Shown here: positions 1 to 5,371 of the stretch, one piece after another
Position numbering within the stretch: the stretch's first letter is position 1
Layout: each line of letters opens with the position of its first letter
IMG/VR virus record: IMGVR_UViG_2667527717_000007
Location: 1-5,371 of that record
Reading direction: 5' to 3' (one strand)
Length of the DNA: 5,371 nucleotides
Source: a virus
Taxonomy: Duplodnaviria > Heunggongvirae > Uroviricota > Caudoviricetes
Position numbers and translations under genes: made by a program
Notes under the pieces: generated by a model
The model's input: only the letters and a program-made list of their open reading frames with translations
Database searches by the model: none
Told to the model about the DNA's origin: nothing

Positions 1-1
1 G

Positions 2-322
2 TTTACCGCCTGGCAGACCGCTGGCGCACCGTCTAAAGAAAGCTGGGCATTCACTGCGTTAGGTGTTCTCGGCAACGATGACANNCCTGAAGCATGGTTT
101 TTCAGTGATGTCAGCGGGTTATCTGAGAGTCATGCAGTACATTTACCAGAAAGTAATGGTTCAGACTTTCTCCCGCTTAGCGATGAAGAGATCAGACTGC
201 TAACTGTCTTCAGGAAATTTCCTTCTGTAGAGAGTAAAAACATGCTGTTAGCGTTTGAGATGAGACTTCAGGAGATAAAAGAATACTATTCCAAATACGC
301 TAATCCCAATAAAAACCGATAG
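2..322 (+). CDS. 3' portion of a gene entering from upstream (106 sense codons, stop TAG 320-322); hypothetical protein, possibly the C-terminal part of a prophage regulator
   Basis: Frame 2 is open from the window edge to TAG at 320-322; the other + frames hit stops within about 60 nt. Codon usage looks E. coli-like. The tail ...LSDEEIRLLTVFRKFPSVESKNMLLAFEMRLQEIKEYY resembles C-terminal tails I associate with some XRE-family regulators, from memory only. NN at 84-85 gives one unknown residue. Confidence 0.5.
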   Translation, partial: FTAWQTAGAPSKESWAFTALGVLGNDDXPEAWFFSDVSGLSESHAVHLPESNGSDFLPLSDEEIRLLTVFRKFPSVESKNMLLAFEMRLQEIKEYYSKYANPNKNR

Positions 323-348
323 TCTCCTTCTTTCCTCCCCCAACAATC

Positions 349-375
349 ACAAGCCTGCTTGAAATGCAGGCTTGT
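349..375 (+). other. Stem-loop with 10-bp stem (acaagcctgc / gcaggcttgt) and 7-nt loop, 27 nt after the stop of the upstream gene; no U-tract
   Basis: Direct base pairing of 349-358 with 366-375. Shares the GCCTGC...GCAGGC stem with hairpins at 1721-1734 and 2087-2104. No T-run follows, so it is not a canonical intrinsic terminator. Confidence 0.5.
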
Positions 376-386
376 TACACCTCGCA

Positions 387-401
387 TAATAAAACACTTA
401 A
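387..401 (+). repeat. Direct repeat copy 1: TAATAAAACACTTAA (exact 15-mer, second copy at 666-680; degenerate copy TAAACACTTGTATTTAT at 441-457)
   Basis: Exact 15-nt identity between 387-401 and 666-680, extending with a 2-nt gap into TTCAT. Both lie in an AT-rich context. Confidence 0.7.
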
Positions 402-558
402 ATTTCATACAATTAAAAATTTTTAGTGATTTTCTCACTTTAAACACTTGTATTTATCAAATCCATTTTGTAGATTGATTGTACAAATCCTCTAGCAACA
501 CATGCGCGACAGGTAAACGTTCCGCCGACGGGCGTAAAACAAAGATGAGGACGACAGA

Positions 559-747
559 GTGGACAAGACTGAACTGAAACACATTATCGCCCTGCTCCTG
601 GAAGATGCAAAACGTCTTCAGCAGGTTGAACCAAATGCAGGCACTGAGGCCCGCATATGGTTGGCTAATAAAACACTTAATTCATTCAGAGAGTTAAGCG
701 GTTTTGCAAGAGGGTCAGGTATCTCTACCGAACACCAACTTTCTTAG
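559..747 (+). CDS. Small hypothetical protein (62 aa), GTG start
   Basis: ORF from the six-frame track. GAGG at 547-550 sits 8 nt upstream of GTG 559. Codon usage is reasonable. It has no recognisable motif, contains a copy of the 15-bp repeat, and its last 23 nt overlap the convergent ORF 725..913. Coding status is uncertain. Confidence 0.35.
   Translation: MDKTELKHIIALLLEDAKRLQQVEPNAGTEARIWLANKTLNSFRELSGFARGSGISTEHQLS
666..680 (+). repeat. Direct repeat copy 2: TAATAAAACACTTAA, lying inside putative ORF 559..747
   Basis: Exact 15-mer match to 387-401. Confidence 0.7.
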
Positions 748-913
748 CTAGCGCCTCCATAATAATAGAATGTCGTTCGCTAAGAATGCCGATTGCCGCC
801 CCGCAAAGTGCACACTGAACGAAGTGAATAATGTGACTGCAATTTTTCACTGAGGAATTGGTTTTTAACTCAAAAGAAGTTGATGGGCATTTTGGACAGG
901 TTGTTACAGCCAT
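725..913 (-). CDS. Small C4 zinc-ribbon protein (62 aa), hypothetical
   Basis: ATG at 913-911 is preceded on the - strand by GGAGGG with a 6-nt spacer (+ strand cctcc at 922-926). The protein MAVTTCPKCPS...CSHIIHFVQCALCG carries a CxxC...CxxC spacing typical of a zinc ribbon. Its 3' end overlaps ORF 559..747 convergently. Confidence 0.5.
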   Translation of the reverse strand: MAVTTCPKCPSTSFELKTNSSVKNCSHIIHFVQCALCGAAIGILSERHSIIMEALAKKVGVR

Positions 914-946
914 ATTTTACCCTCCACGGGGTCGATGTTGGTGGAG

Positions 947-969
947 TTCCCGACGGACGAGGTCGGGAA
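947..969. other. Inverted repeat ttcccgac-N7-gtcgggaa (8-bp arms) in the 5' leader of the minus-strand ORF
   Basis: 947-954 is the reverse complement of 962-969. It lies about 34 nt upstream of the ATG at 913 in minus-strand sense. Confidence 0.4.
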
Positions 970-998
970 TGTGCGCCGGACACAGGTATAAATCCGGC

Positions 999-1013
999 AT
1001 ACGAAATTCGTAT
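999..1013. promoter_or_regulatory. Perfect 15-bp palindrome ATACGAA-A-TTCGTAT; candidate operator for a dimeric DNA-binding protein
   Basis: Arms 999-1005 and 1007-1013 are exact reverse complements. It sits in the divergent gap between the minus-strand ORF start (913) and the + strand operon (1391). Confidence 0.35.
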
Positions 1014-1047
1014 CACATGCAGGATATGTATTTAAACACGAGCACAT

Positions 1048-1122
1048 AACCGAAAACGCACTACGCAGAACCTTCCTTGTCGGGTCTGTCGTTAAATTTA
1101 CTGCGATAGTGCGTTTCCGGTT
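1048..1122. repeat. Long imperfect inverted repeat: arms 1048-1068 (aaccgaaaacgcactacgcag) and 1101-1122 (ctgcgatagtgcgtttccggtt), separated by 32 bp
   Basis: The reverse complement of arm 2 is aaccggaaacgcactatcgcag, which aligns to arm 1 with one mismatch and one 1-nt gap. It could be an operator pair or a structured RNA; the sequence alone cannot distinguish them. Confidence 0.55.
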
Positions 1123-1159
1123 ATGAGTGAAAATCATAACAGTGCTGTGTGTAGTCTTT

Positions 1160-1206
1160 GACGGTATCCGTTAACAAAGTTTTCCTGGCTGATACCGTCC
1201 TTTTTC
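1160..1206 (+). terminator. Terminator-like element: 9-bp stem gacggtatc / gataccgtc with a 22-nt loop, followed by CTTTTTC
   Basis: 1160-1168 pairs with 1191-1199 and a T5 run follows at 1201-1205. The loop is larger than in typical intrinsic terminators. It lies about 185 nt upstream of ORF 1391..1681, so it could be a leader attenuator. Confidence 0.35.
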
Positions 1207-1390
1207 AGAATGAATTTTATAGTGTGGTGAATGCGGCTCAGCGCACGTGACACAGTTAAAAACATGTCAGTCCTTCATCTGTTGATGGGTGGGAATGTTC
1301 GTCGGCAGTAATGGTTAGCTGTTTACTGTCACCGGGAGGCACCCGGCACCACACTCCAAAATTCATTGTGTTACCAGAATGGAGACAACT

Positions 1391-1681
1391 ATGCCAGTTA
1401 CACCTGAAATAAAACAAAACTCAGACTGGATGCGGCGCAACAAATCTGAACAAACCGCCCCTGCCTGTAAGCCTGGTATTATTCAGAAAATATTAAGTAC
1501 GCTGAACCAGAAAGGTGACCCCACCCTTATTCCTTGCGCTTATTGTGGCAAAGCCATCAACAAAAGTGAAATCGTGGAGCATGAACTTATTTATATAAAC
1601 GGAAGTCAGCTCGCAAGAAAAACGAATCTATATTGCAGTAAACGATGTGCCGAATATGACCAGATGGCACATGAATCTTAA
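1391..1681 (+). CDS. Small zinc-ribbon protein (96 aa), hypothetical early-left operon gene
   Basis: GGAG at 1381-1384 sits 6 nt before ATG 1391, which I prefer to the track start at 1379 (no SD). The protein has CAYCGK...x28...CSKRC, a CxxC-N28-CxxxC pattern. Stop TAA 1679-1681 is followed immediately by TAG. Its position matches the small genes that precede recE in Rac-like prophages. Confidence 0.65.
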   Translation: MPVTPEIKQNSDWMRRNKSEQTAPACKPGIIQKILSTLNQKGDPTLIPCAYCGKAINKSEIVEHELIYINGSQLARKTNLYCSKRCAEYDQMAHES

Positions 1682-1720
1682 TAGCTGAAAGTTTAACACT
1701 GCATTAACCCTGAAACTATG

Positions 1721-1734
1721 CCTGCAATGGCAGG
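1721..1734 (+). other. Short hairpin CCTGC-aatg-GCAGG in the gap between the two small genes
   Basis: 5-bp stem with a 4-nt loop. Shares the stem sequence of the hairpins at 349-375 and 2087-2104. Confidence 0.4.
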
Positions 1735-1764
1735 ATATCACTCACCCTGAAAAGAGAATATAAA

Positions 1765-2097
1765 ATGAGAAAGACACCGAGCGAATCAGTAATTAATGAA
1801 CTCAACAAACGAGCAAAGGAAATTCTTGAACTGTGTGAGAAAAACGATATTCCGGTTGTTTTTTGTTACTCATTCGAATTAAGCCGGAATGAAAATGGAT
1901 ATTTAAACAACAAATCCATTACAGCTTATATCAATAAAGAGAAAGGAGCATGGGATTCAACAATAGCCGCAGCCAGCATGATCCTGCGGATGAAAGAGGT
2001 TCCTGAGATAGCTATCCATGCAATGGCTGAAATGGCTGCGATTTGTGACATCACACGGACTGCATCCGGTACTTCAGATGAAAAAAGCCTGCACTAA
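1765..2097 (+). CDS. Hypothetical protein (110 aa) immediately upstream of recE-like gene
   Basis: ATG 1765 with a weak purine-rich SD (aaagaga, 1751-1757). Stop TAA 2095-2097. Co-directional and closely spaced with its neighbours. It occupies the position of racC in Rac, but I do not claim homology. Confidence 0.6.
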   Translation: MRKTPSESVINELNKRAKEILELCEKNDIPVVFCYSFELSRNENGYLNNKSITAYINKEKGAWDSTIAAASMILRMKEVPEIAIHAMAEMAAICDITRTASGTSDEKSLH

Positions 2098-2116
2098 GGC
2101 AGGCATTTTCCCGGTT
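2087..2116 (+). terminator. Possible intrinsic terminator or processing hairpin: GCCTGC-actaag-GCAGGC followed by ATTTTCCCGGTTTTT
   Basis: 6-bp GC-rich stem (2087-2092 / 2099-2104). The stop codon of the upstream ORF lies in the loop. The T-rich tract 2106-2119 is interrupted by CCCGG. recE starts 118 nt downstream, so any termination is probably partial. Confidence 0.35.
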
Positions 2117-2233
2117 TTTACATCCCGGCGATGCTGAGGTGGGCGACCAAACCCACCGACAGAGACATGACCAATGAGCACCAGAGGTGATCACCGATCG
2201 CCTCATTCTAAACAGAAGTGAGGTTAAAAAACA

Positions 2234-5200
2234 ATGAGTGATAAGAAAGAAGATTTCGCGCTGTACTGCCCTGTTAAAAATGAAGAGGCCAGGAAACGAC
2301 TTGGAATAAAAGCAGGCTTTTTCTGGGCAACTGCAAAAAAATTATCTGTGGCTGTTTCCCGCTGTATTGCTGCTATGGACGATAAGGGGTATGACGAGGA
2401 TGACTTTAAAAAACCTGTTCGCGTCAATTACCCCGTCGTTAACGACCTGCCTCCTGAAGGCGTGTTTGATACTGAATTCTGCAACCGTTACGAAAAAGGC
2501 GGTCAGGGTGGTATCACAATGGTACTTATCCCCGGCGCTGTTCCCGCCGATCCAATGCACGGCGAAGTCGGCAGGGATATTACTGGCAGCGGCAACGCAG
2601 ACGCAGACGCAGACGCAGGCACAGACGCAGATAATGCTACGGACAATACCGAAAGTACGCTCCTCCCCGCTTACGCTTATAACGTCAACGGCGAACTGAT
2701 GTCGGAAGTGGAAAAGGAAATGTCGCAGCCTGTTTCAGGACTAAGTCTGCCACTTCGTTTCCTGGCGCAATTTAATAACGACTGTCCACAACATCAGGTC
2801 ACACCAGAGCGTTTACGGGAGTTAAACCTTACAGAGCAGGATCCCGACAGTCGTACCGGAACTATTTTACTCGCCATCCAGAACAGAAAGGAACAGCTCG
2901 AAAAACTGGACACAAAAAACCTGCATCCTTTGGCGACGTACATTGAAAAAGTATTTCCCTGCGGAAAACGACCACAACTCAATGATGTCATTAATTTTAT
3001 CGATGCCGTACTTAATACAGACTATGTCGATCGCGGACTGCTCGTTAAGGAATGGTGCGAAGGTCGTCGAGCCGCGTGCGTAGAGCATGTAACAGCACCA
3101 GAAACCAGGCGTGATAATACTGTGTCAGCGCAGACGGAAACGAAGACTACTGTCACTGAACGTCCGCGTCGTAGCGAAAAAACAACGCACCGGACGATTA
3201 ATTATGAAATTGGCTGTGGCTTATATGACGGCGAGCTGGATCTTCATAACCTGAGGGAACCGCTGGATTTTGCGAAACGCATTATGGCGAAAGACCGGGA
3301 AGACTGGAAAGTATGGTCAGACACAATCAACTGCATCCCTGGCATCCTGAATTATGACCGCCAGACCATTATCGAGATGGTACGAAAAGCCCCCACCCCG
3401 ACTTATCACAGTGCTGCACTGCGCCGCGAGTGGTGTGATTCTTATCTGCGAGCCTGGGGACGGCTCGATCCCGACTGGAGCCAGAGCGCCGCTGTCAAAA
3501 CAGCAGAGTCACATGAAGATGTCTGTGCTGATATCAGGAAGGCCGGAAAGCGCCTGCGTGAAATTGAATCAGGAGTTGGGATCAATGAAGAAAAACAGAC
3601 GACACAGGGAGAACTGGCAGATGAACCGTCAGCGCCTGAATCAGTGGAACCGGCTTCAGCTGAACATCAGCAGAATACGCAGCCGCTGGATGCTGAGGCA
3701 TCTGTAAACACCACTAAAACGGAATTCGATGTATTTGCTCTAATGCAGAACTCATCTGTTTATGGCAGCAAAAACACACAGGAGACGACCAGCAATGTGC
3801 AGGTTCAGGACGCTGAAAAGGATGAAAAACAGGCTGGTACTGAAGTTCAGTCAGGCGAAAGCAGTCTGGGAACTGGTGAAGAGTCAGATACCAGACAGCA
3901 AGCCGATGTAAACCAGAATACGGATTCTGTCGCCCAAAATAGCGATTCTGTAAACCAAACTGAACCAGTTTTGGCACAAACCGAGCCAGAAGTGCAATCT
4001 GACGAACCGGCTGTTGTTTACCCCGCTTACTTCGAACCAGGCCGCTATGAGGGTCTGCCGAACGAGGTTTATCACGCAGCCAACGGTATCAGCTCGACAA
4101 TGGTAAAAGATGCGCGGGTGAGCCTGATGTACTTCAATGCGCGCCACGTAGAGAAAACCATTATCAAAGAACGCTCTCCTGTACTGGATATCGGTAACCT
4201 GGTGCATGCACTGGCGTTGCAGCCAGATCAACTCGATGAAGAATTCAGCATTGAACCCGTAATTCCGGAAGGTGCATTTACCACCACGGCAACGATCCGC
4301 GCGTTTATTGATGAGCACAACGCCAGCCTGACAGCGATGCTGTCAGCCGACGACATCAAAGCACTGTTAGAAGAGTACAACGCCACCCTTCCTGCTCAGG
4401 TTCAGTTAGGTGGTTCCGTGGAGGAAACTGGCCAGAGCTATATGTCGCTGCCAGAAGAGTTCCAGCGTCTCGAAGCGGACAAGAAGCAGACCGCAGCGGC
4501 AATGAAAGCCTGCATCAAGGAATACAACACCACACTGCCTGCACAAGTGAAAATCAGCGGTAGCCGTGATGCGTTACTCGAGCAGTTAGCAATCATCAAT
4601 CCTGACCTGGTGGCGCAGGAAGCGCAGAAGCCCGCGCAGTTGAAAGTGTCCGGCACCAAAGCGGATCTGATTCAGGCCGTGAAGTCTGTTAATCCTGATG
4701 CCATCTTCGCCGACGAACTGCTGGATGCGTGGCGCGAAAATACGCAAGGGAAAGTGCTGGTCACCCGCCAGCAACTGAGCACTGCACTGAGCATTCAGAA
4801 AGCCCTGCTCGAGCACCCTACAGCGGGCAAGCTACTGACACACCCGAGCCGCGCCGTTGAGGTGAGCTACTTCGGTTTTGACGACGAAACCGGTCTGGAA
4901 GTCCGCGTTCGTCCCGACCTTGAGATCGATCTTGACGGGGTGCGCATCGGCGCCGACCTGAAAACCATCAGCATGTGGAACATTAAACAGGAAGGTCTGC
5001 GCGCCAAACTGCACCGCGAAATCATCGACCGTGACTACCACCTGAGTGCTGCCATGTATTGCGAGACCGCAGCGCTTGACCAGTTCTTCTGGATTTTCGT
5101 CAACAAAGACGAGAACTACCACTGGATCGCCATCATCGAGGCATCCGCCGAACTTCTGGAACTGGGCATGCTGGAGTACCGCAAGGCAATGCGCGCCATC

Positions 5201-5296
5201 GCTACCGGCTTTGACACTGGCGAGTGGCCAGCGCCGATCACCTCCGGTAACTCCGATGAAATAGCCGACTACACCGACGAACTGAACGATTTCGAC
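2234..5296 (+). CDS. recE: Exodeoxyribonuclease VIII (RecE family; PD-(D/E)XK / DUF3799-type nuclease domain at C-terminus); 3' end truncated by an artefactual junction
   Basis: Single long ORF with GAGG at 2220-2223 and ATG 2234. Stretches I recognise from E. coli Rac RecE: FPVVNDLP-like NYPVVNDLPPEG, LPLRFLAQ, DYVDRGLLVKEW, NTQPLDAEASVN. The C-terminal domain carries nuclease motifs: YHAANGISSTMVKD, LDIGNLVHALAL, RVRPDLEID, GADLKT (D-x-K), DYHLSAAMY. An acidic, Q/T-rich low-complexity linker spans roughly aa 470-590. No stop codon is reached before the sequence turns into rRNA at 5297. Confidence 0.85.
2597..2630 (+). repeat. In-frame imperfect hexanucleotide tandem repeat (GCAGAC)n, about 5.7 units, encoding ADADADAGTDAD within recE
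   Basis: gcagac gcagac gcagac gcaggc acagac gcag, read directly. The unit length of 6 keeps the reading frame under slippage. Confidence 0.8.
4295..4710 (+). repeat. Degenerate internal repeats inside the recE nuclease-domain region (three copies of an [IM][RK]A-x-[IL]-x-E-[HY]-N-x-[ST]-L motif, and duplicated LPAQV-x-[IL]-SGS / KVSGTKADLIQAV modules)
   Basis: DNA-level similarity between 4373-4418 and 4520-4564 (about 67% identity, 147-bp period). Protein motifs: IRAFIDEHNASL, IKALLEEYNATL, MKACIKEYNTTL, and ISGSRDALLEQLAIINPD vs VSGTKADLIQAVKSVNPD. Confidence 0.5.
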
Positions 5297-5371
5297 NCNT
5301 GCCATCNGANGNGCCCAGATGGGATTAGCTAGTAGGTGGGGTAACGGCTCACCTAGGCGACGATCCCTAGC
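5297..5371 (+). rRNA. Internal fragment of 16S rRNA gene (Enterobacteriaceae-type, roughly E. coli positions 215-290); most likely a chimeric or assembly artefact, not an intact rRNA gene
   Basis: tgccatcNgaNgNgcccagatgggattagctagtaggtggggtaacggctcacctaggcgacgatccctagc matches the conserved 16S segment TGCCATCGGATGTGCCCAGATGGGATTAGCTAGTAGGTGGGGTAACGGCTCACCTAGGCGACGATCCCTAGC as I recall it. It begins abruptly inside the recE reading frame, with N calls clustered at 5297-5312. Confidence 0.8.

Follow-up and report, generated by a model that had tools for sequence, protein, structure and literature searches.

RecE and RecT are a workhorse of recombineering and are now being adapted for knock-in in mammalian cells, and to our knowledge everything that has been learned about the structure and mechanism of RecE comes from the Rac enzyme of Escherichia coli K-12. 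In a 2023 review co-authored by the RecE-structure laboratory, residues 665 to 698 of the K-12 enzyme are described as disordered DNA-binding loops at the rim where double-stranded DNA (dsDNA) enters. Here we analyze a 5,371-nt stretch of DNA from a tailed virus (Caudoviricetes; IMG/VR record IMGVR_UViG_2667527717_000007, positions 1 to 5,371; the whole stretch is called the window below) that encodes a RecE-family exonuclease. At the site of the K-12 loop, the nuclease domain of this protein carries a 155-residue insertion built of repeated helical units, which appear to be derived from SAP (helix-extended loop-helix) modules.

A search of the literature on RecE/exonuclease VIII with a SAP domain and on DUF3799 found no description of such an array or of SAP in RecE. 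The Rac and Gifsy-1 RecE types are named, with no discussion of the array, in a survey of lambdoid recombination modules from 2025. The enzyme and the accessory motif are both known; what we rate as undescribed is the way in which the motif is multiplied, as a domain within a domain, at a site that is suggestive of function.

The nuclease core

The main feature of the window is an open reading frame (ORF) listed at 2234-5332 on the plus strand, with 1,032 codons. The part that belongs to the RecE-family exonuclease gene is 2234..5296 (+), as from about 5297 the ORF runs through N's and then into an rRNA-derived tail. Pfam finds an Exonuc_VIII region (PF06630; 41.3 bits, cutoff 25) near the N terminus, at amino acids (aa) 54-194 (2393..2815, +), and DUF3799 (PF12684; 45 bits, cutoff 26). 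The DUF3799 match falls into two stretches split by the insertion, the larger of which covers aa 835-1001.

Two conserved blocks of the PD-(D/E)XK core flank the insertion. The first, aa 601-681 (4034..4276, +), holds the active-site His in LDIGNLVHAL, and the second, aa 837-1006 (4742..5251, +), runs through RVRPD...ADLKT and holds the catalytic Asp/Asp/Lys. The motifs LVHAL, RVRPD, and ADLKT can all be read in the window RecE sequence, and the catalytic residues H72, D309, D322, and K324 (numbered in the C-terminal fragment of 434 residues) are invariant over the 63 family members of alignment A1. A phmmer search of the whole ORF against the PDB gave nothing at E ≤ 0.01, and a search with the C-terminal fragment recovered K-12 RecE (PDB 3H4R). 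The K-12 enzyme aligns with this fragment in only two blocks, residues 25-120 and 252-417, and BLASTP likewise gives two blocks, 15-95 and 251-414. Identity between the two nuclease domains is 21 to 26%. The top Foldseek match of the AlphaFold2 domain model is also 3H4R (E 8.9e-9; 224 alignment columns for a 219-residue target), followed by 3L0A. Judged from its sequence, the window protein is a RecE/DUF3799 PD-(D/E)XK exonuclease.

An insertion built of internal repeats

The linker between the two conserved blocks is 155 aa long in the window protein (aa 682-836; 4277..4741, +) versus 15 aa in K-12 RecE (aa 676-690), a difference of about 140 residues. These lengths were obtained by projecting both blocks onto each protein, with the K-12 numbering checked at the active-site His652. 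The K-12 linker falls in the middle of the loop formed by residues 665 to 698. A first-pass annotation of the window, made from the sequence alone, had proposed an insertion of about 130 aa relative to K-12 RecE at 4250-4740, and the measured segment nearly coincides with it; the extra residues are also absent from the DUF3799 family consensus. Canonical relatives do not have a segment of this length here but have 8 to 16 aa.

The insertion is made of degenerate repeats, as the first-pass annotation had supposed. The best self-alignment of the insert scores 112, against 28.8 ± 5.3 (maximum, 52) in 200 shuffled versions, and profiles of the units give the same picture. Three "a" helices (IRAFIDEHNASL, IKALLEEYNATL, and MKACIKEYNTTL) share the motif [IM][KR]AxIxE[YH]NxxL, and two "b" units (PAQVKISGSRDALLEQLAIINPD and PAQLKVSGTKADLIQAVKSVNPD) share PAQxKxSG[ST][KR]xxL...NPD, with a third, degenerate copy termed b2'. 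The units follow one another in the order a1-a2-b2'-x-a3-b3-b4. Unit a1 (FTTTATIRAFIDEHNASLTAM; 4277..4339, +), with a helix predicted at fragment residues 99-112, is followed by a2 (LSADDIKALLEEYNATLPAQV; 4340..4402, +), delimited by self-alignment, model, and profiles, and by b2' with the linker x (QLGGSVEETGQSYMSLPEEFQRLEADKK; 4403..4486, +), in which the basic residue of G-x-[KR] has been lost. Unit a3 (QTAAAMKACIKEYNTTLPAQV; 4487..4549, +), delimited in the same way as a2, and unit b3 (KISGSRDALLEQLAIINPDLVAQEAQK; 4550..4630, +) together form the best-preserved contiguous helix-loop-helix unit, and b4 (PAQLKVSGTKADLIQAVKSVNPDAIF; 4631..4708, +) completes the array. A closing helix, ADELLDAWREN (4709..4741, +; alignment and model), leads back into the core, and on our reading of the sequence it may correspond to the short K-12 helix that precedes GKTVIT.

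Little of this repetition is left in the DNA. Within the segment, the only remnant is one 20-nt pair with 85% identity (4310-4329 and 4370-4389), and TRF found no tandem repeat in the insertion region. A recent tandem duplication at the DNA level was considered and is ruled out by these two results, which indicate instead that the duplications that built the array are old. The insertion and its internal repeats are real and are confirmed by block projection, self-alignment, model, and profiles.

Computed from an alignment of 63 family members, the AlphaFold2 domain model (predicted local distance difference test [pLDDT], 94.2; predicted template modeling score [pTM], 0.81) places eight insert helices on an alpha/beta core, and a model of the insert alone reaches a pLDDT of 91.3. 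The models thus predict with high confidence that the array is a separate, all-helical module with repeats on a RecE-like core and not an integral part of the alpha/beta nuclease fold, which answers a doubt raised in the first-pass annotation. A pattern of helix, loop of about 10 residues, and helix is predicted for a2-b2' and for a3-b3. A Foldseek search of the insert-only model against the PDB returned no meaningful match (best E, 0.88). As to fold, the predicted structure is suggestive, rather than proof, of membership of the array in SAP.

Relationship to SAP modules

The link between the array and SAP runs through relatives that have a single module at the same site. Four of these pass the Pfam SAP cutoff of 23.9 bits (P0256, 43.9; P0241, 34.4; P0237, 33.4; and P0249, 29.6 bits); P0241 bears the IMG name "DUF3799/SAP domain," and P0256 also has a weak FANC_SAP match. 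In a MAFFT alignment of the 63 family members, helix 1 of the single SAP falls on a1 and helix 2 falls on b4. The remaining 98 residues would thus lie inside the loop of the ancestral SAP. Profile comparison by hhalign against the single-SAP profile gives 96.9% (E 1.4e-10) for a3+b3 and 87.6% for a2+b2'. Compared with one another, the a units score 97.6 to 98.1% and b3-b4 scores 96.4%, while a-b controls stay at or below 10%; b2' against b3 or b4 reaches only 11 to 45%. By position and profile, the units of the window array are shown at the sequence level to be homologous to bona fide SAP modules.

Taken out of the array, the window units themselves are not recognized. Pfam SAP scans of isolated a3+b3, of isolated a2+b2'+x, and of the a2/b3 and a1/b4 splices gave nothing or 15 bits. 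The units are therefore termed SAP-derived rather than curated members of the family, and their SAP membership rests on transitive evidence. Several basic residues are conserved at SAP-consensus positions, namely, R689, K709, and K758 (a helices) and R778 and K809 (G-x-[KR]). The most conserved positions of the array are caps and turns (the N of E[YH]N, the G of SG, and the P of NPD).

The first-pass annotation had compared the repeats to helix-extension-helix (HeH) or SAP-like units. That likeness stands insofar as the segment is a separate all-helical unit related by position and profile to the SAP modules of one-module relatives, but its own units fall below the Pfam threshold. Nor is the array a simple row of separate HeH domains; two of its units lie within the ancestral SAP loop, and the order reads a-a-b'-x-a-b-b. 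A SAP unit was also suggested for a mycobacteriophage RecE by tblastn matches that start within b4, at residue 218, but neither pairwise alignment nor Pfam revealed one.

Copy number across the family

Among 91 representatives (50% clustering), linker lengths at this site are strongly modal, with classes of 8 to 16, 47 to 58, 106, 155, and 206 to 208 aa. The shortest class contains 14 diverse representatives in addition to K-12, proteins with 47 to 58 aa have a single module, and the window protein and most enterobacterial proteins have 155 aa. The representatives were pooled with 120 close relatives and 79 loci from GTDB species genomes, and every clear array variant fits the formula a^n[b'xa]^m b^n. 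The (n, m) values are (1, 0) at 57 aa (P0148 and relatives), (1, 1) at 104 aa (Buttiauxella and Rahnella), (2, 0) at 106 aa (P0147), (2, 1) at 155 aa (the window), (2, 2) at 204 aa (P0044), and (3, 1) at 206 to 208 aa (P0121, Klebsiella, Silvania, and Photobacterium).

Counts made with hidden Markov models show that the number of a units equals the sum of b and b' units in 237 of 240 sequences, many of which are related, so that the figure overstates the number of independent events. The three exceptions are one frameshifted fragment and two divergent proteins. These balanced counts suggest a requirement for one b partner per a helix, in keeping with helix-loop-helix units. Going from 155 to 206 aa takes one additional a (20 aa) and one additional b (31 aa), placed at separate sites with about 100 aa between them. 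This change is found in two lineages, one near the window and the other of the Photobacterium type and only about 38% identical, and no form with just one of the two changes was seen in the pooled set.

Other RecE/DUF3799 proteins have an unrelated repeat family (KPTxxQxxxYxxWxxxGKPExxx...) at the same linker site, with lengths of 43, 86, 124 to 135, and 180 aa (P0175, P0181, P0206, P0183, P0178, P0187, P0188, P0207, and P0191). Pfam gave no match at this site in the three proteins scanned (P0175, P0178, and P0206). The linker loop thus seems, from these sequences, to be generally prone to gaining repeat arrays, and at least two repeat families with no relation to each other would have entered this one loop of the DUF3799 fold independently.

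Distribution and RecT partner

At least 79 Enterobacterales species have this RecE class in their genomes. The 155-aa array is its standard form in Citrobacter, Enterobacter, Kluyvera, Klebsiella, Serratia, Proteus, Edwardsiella, Salmonella, and others. Phages that carry this form include mEp237, where the annotation gives similarity to "gifsy-1 prophage RecE," as well as Klebsiella phage Kpn_R1 and Aeromonas phage pAEv1818. The feature is not peculiar to the window protein but is the usual form of the Gifsy-1/mEp237-type RecE clade. Database annotation describes the array-bearing proteins only as RecE-family or PD-(D/E)XK nucleases.

In the relatives, recT lies directly downstream of recE in a prophage early-left operon, after kil and ydaE-type genes. 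A match to the mEp237-type RecT (>200 bits) was found at 63 of 68 loci with the 155-aa array and at all 10 other loci. Examples are 7581-8672 in locus L001 and 5329-6441 in L004; the others are in loci L005 to L083, downstream of recE. This partner is a distinct, longer type of 357 to 384 aa, compared with 269 aa for the Rac RecT, and phmmer at E ≤ 1e-5 found no link between the two types. The same RecT type accompanies arrays of 104, 155, and 206 aa.

Proposed role and alternative explanations

The position of the array at the rim loop, together with the basic residues conserved at SAP positions, makes capture or holding of duplex ends its most likely role. We give slightly better than even weight to the whole reading, in which an SAP-derived array, expanded by internal duplication, sits at the rim loop of dsDNA entry and helps to load and hold duplex ends. 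Internal duplication would have turned a SAP domain at the RecE loop into three a/b helix pairs, and in the class of the window protein the resulting folded array would have replaced the flexible DNA-capture loop of the K-12 type. Each a probably packs on a b (a2 with b2', a3 with b3, and a1 with b4). The arrays could surround the DNA entrance of the assembled ring, where they may help to load the exonuclease on a duplex end and to keep the duplex in place in front of the active site, with contacts to DNA potentially made through the conserved G-x-[KR] and [IM]-[KR] positions at helix N termini. Such a role would be analogous to that of the Ku70 SAP domain in loading onto DNA ends. It is also plausible that the array alters substrate handling by the exonuclease, as the first-pass annotation had suggested.

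Several observations weigh against this reading. The insert has a net charge of -9 and an isoelectric point of 4.6 (class range of net charge, -1 to -10), and the array has 14 conserved acidic versus 11 conserved basic positions; the nuclease core is similarly acidic (-13 in the window protein and -12 in K-12). The best direct Pfam SAP (PF02037) score of any window unit is 16.6 bits (E 0.006), under the cutoff, and it comes from the second half-motif (VSGTKADLIQAVKSV) only. Since the cores are only 21 to 26% identical, the "rim loop" geometry of K-12 is transferred to the window protein by inference. Mutual information with average product correction over the 155-aa linkers (63 sequences; effective number, 27) did not establish the a/b pairing and did not favor nested matching. 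Some SAP domains, moreover, mediate protein contacts: that of SLX4 binds MUS81 (PMC13171448), and PDB entry 6h9u is titled as the nucleotide-binding domain of BiP complexed with the SAP domain of MANF.

A more specific form of the proposal, which we advance tentatively and regard as possible rather than probable, is that the array is an assembly of SAP units that are nested like Russian dolls and tunable in length. Four such assemblies would crown the entrance of the RecE ring, with copy number setting the capture, holding, or gating of duplex ends. New helix-loop-helix units would have been intercalated in the loop of an older unit, and the outer layer would be gained or lost only by coupled changes at two positions separated by some 100 residues (a^n ... 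b^n). If true, this arrangement would give a toroidal exonuclease a means, not described before, of modulating its engagement with the substrate.

The main rival explanation, which we regard as unlikely, is that the array is a protein-docking platform that brings the matching RecT annealase, or a host protein such as SSB (single-stranded DNA-binding protein), to the exonuclease. A net acidic array and the protein-binding SAP domains of SLX4 and MANF would fit such a platform, as would the pairing of this RecE class with a distinct, longer RecT, given that RecE-RecT pairing is partner specific (review, PMC11611040). However, one RecT type occurs with arrays of three lengths, so that at this resolution the partner does not change with copy number. 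The site also corresponds to a K-12 loop on the rim of dsDNA entry, and stand-alone DUF3799 nucleases have a canonical SAP there. It appears quite unlikely that the array is instead a structural element without a ligand of its own, such as a lid or gate for the channel or an oligomerization brace that alters the size or stability of the ring. The high pLDDT and pTM values suggest rigid packing on the core rather than tethering, which would suit that role, and the conservation of caps and turns and the balanced steps in length point in the same direction. The conservation of basic residues at positions of the SAP DNA-contact type does not, and the variation in copy number (155, 204, and 206 aa) among proteins whose domains are 72 to 94% identical to the query is hard to fit with a precise architectural role. 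The second, unrelated repeat family suggests that the location is permissive and faces outward.

We consider it very improbable that there is no insertion at all, that is, that the long segment is ancestral and was deleted in K-12 or is an artifact of alignment or of chimeric assembly. The window does contain N's and a foreign 16S tail, and its nuclease domain is distant from that of K-12. However, the Pfam DUF3799 match is split across the site, and the short linker is shared by K-12 with 14 diverse representatives. As one ungapped piece, the same 155-aa segment recurs in independent records that number in the hundreds, among them complete genomes and cultured phages. The chimeric junction described below is about 550 nt further downstream, and the finding of the insertion is therefore unaffected by it.

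Genomic context and the 3' end of the window

N's are found in the window at 84-85 and at 5297-5311. The second run is followed by a 51-nt piece of bacterial 16S rRNA (5321..5371, +; Rfam SSU_rRNA_bacteria, E 9.6e-8, model positions 237-287), which lies outside the gene, and together these indicate that the 3' end of the contig is chimeric. The E. coli homologue WP_061360105 (1,129 aa; 88.7% identical) ends in ...DFDLRRLEALRTQA and is followed by recT; by comparison with this end, the window RecE lacks about 13 C-terminal residues. The join thus cuts recE about 13 aa before its stop codon, and recT is not in the window. Matches to the window were found in 5,274 of 5,426 E. coli genomes, at a median of 7 places per genome, and these multiple matches probably represent copies of the rRNA operon found through the 16S tail.

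The closest proteins to the window RecE are from Citrobacter (93 to 94%). Near-identical DNA in E. coli genomes (88.7%) covers only 3744-5242 of the window, which is the linker and nuclease-domain part of recE, and megablast matched neither the N-terminal 1,500 nt of recE nor the genes upstream of it in E. coli genomes. This pattern in the sequences indicates that the nuclease module may be exchanged mosaically between prophages. Two in-frame tandem DNA repeats are also found in recE. One, at 2595-2631 in the N-terminal part, is (ACGCAG)x6 and encodes DADADAGTDAD; the other, at 3907-3959, has 2.5 copies of a 21-nt unit that encodes NTDSVAQ/NSDSVNQ and is located in an acidic Q/E/T-rich linker directly ahead of the nuclease domain.

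Upstream of recE, the small ORFs at 1379-1681 (+), 1765-2097 (+), and 725-913 (-) have no significant Pfam family. The first of these (100 aa) ends in a Cys-rich CxxC...CxxxC segment, and the last (62 aa) has weak matches to CGGC and to a Lar-like zinc ribbon (E 0.004 to 0.007). The corresponding positions in the E. coli and mEp237 relatives are occupied by kil and ydaE-family genes. We also found a full-length but subthreshold match to the gammaproteobacterial small RNA family STnc100 at 1199-1403 (+) (39.5 bits against a gathering threshold of 47; E 3.7e-6), upstream of the recE operon genes and overlapping the start of the 100-aa ORF.

Comparison with known systems

Like the window protein, the K-12 Rac RecE (exonuclease VIII, 3H4R) has the PD-(D/E)XK RecE/DUF3799 fold, the catalytic His/Asp/Asp/Lys, and an N-terminal Exonuc_VIII region, and its gene is directly upstream of recT, as are those of the relatives of the window RecE. 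It differs in having a 15-aa linker within a disordered 34-residue loop where the window protein has a folded helical array of 155 aa, in its distant nuclease domain, and in its RecT partner, which is of the other type. A RecE form present in at least 79 Enterobacterales species would thus have exchanged the "DNA-binding loop" of K-12 for a folded multi-SAP array. If the array does improve end capture or processivity, it would be an obvious module for engineered exonucleases.

The closest relatives are the RecE proteins of the Gifsy-1/mEp237 type (e.g., WP_061360105 and AFM76186), which have the same 155-aa array and are 85 to 94% identical over the domain. They differ in nothing essential; the window copy is distinguished by a 6-aa SGNSDEI insertion near its C terminus and by the chimeric C-terminal truncation. 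The stand-alone DUF3799 nucleases P0256, P0237, P0241, and P0249 have a homologous module at the same insertion site, but it is one canonical SAP in a linker of 48 to 51 aa, and they lack the long N-terminal region of RecE. The window array has three diverged units in the order a-a-b'-x-a-b-b, and it may serve as a clean natural example of repeat expansion of a domain within a domain, in which the copy numbers of half-units covary.

Among eukaryotic proteins, Ku is ring shaped, and FAN1 combines a SAP domain with VRR_nuc (PF18081, FANC_SAP). The C-terminal SAP of Ku70 and the SAP domains of FAN1 and SLX4 resemble the window array in that a small HeH module is carried by a ring-shaped end-binder or by a PD-(D/E)XK nuclease, and in this group the module contacts duplex DNA or aids end loading. 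By its title, PMC10681742 reports that the Ku SAP domain aids efficient loading onto DNA ends. These eukaryotic SAPs are single, basic, and located at a terminus or between domains, whereas the window array lies inside the nuclease fold, is multiplied, and is net acidic.

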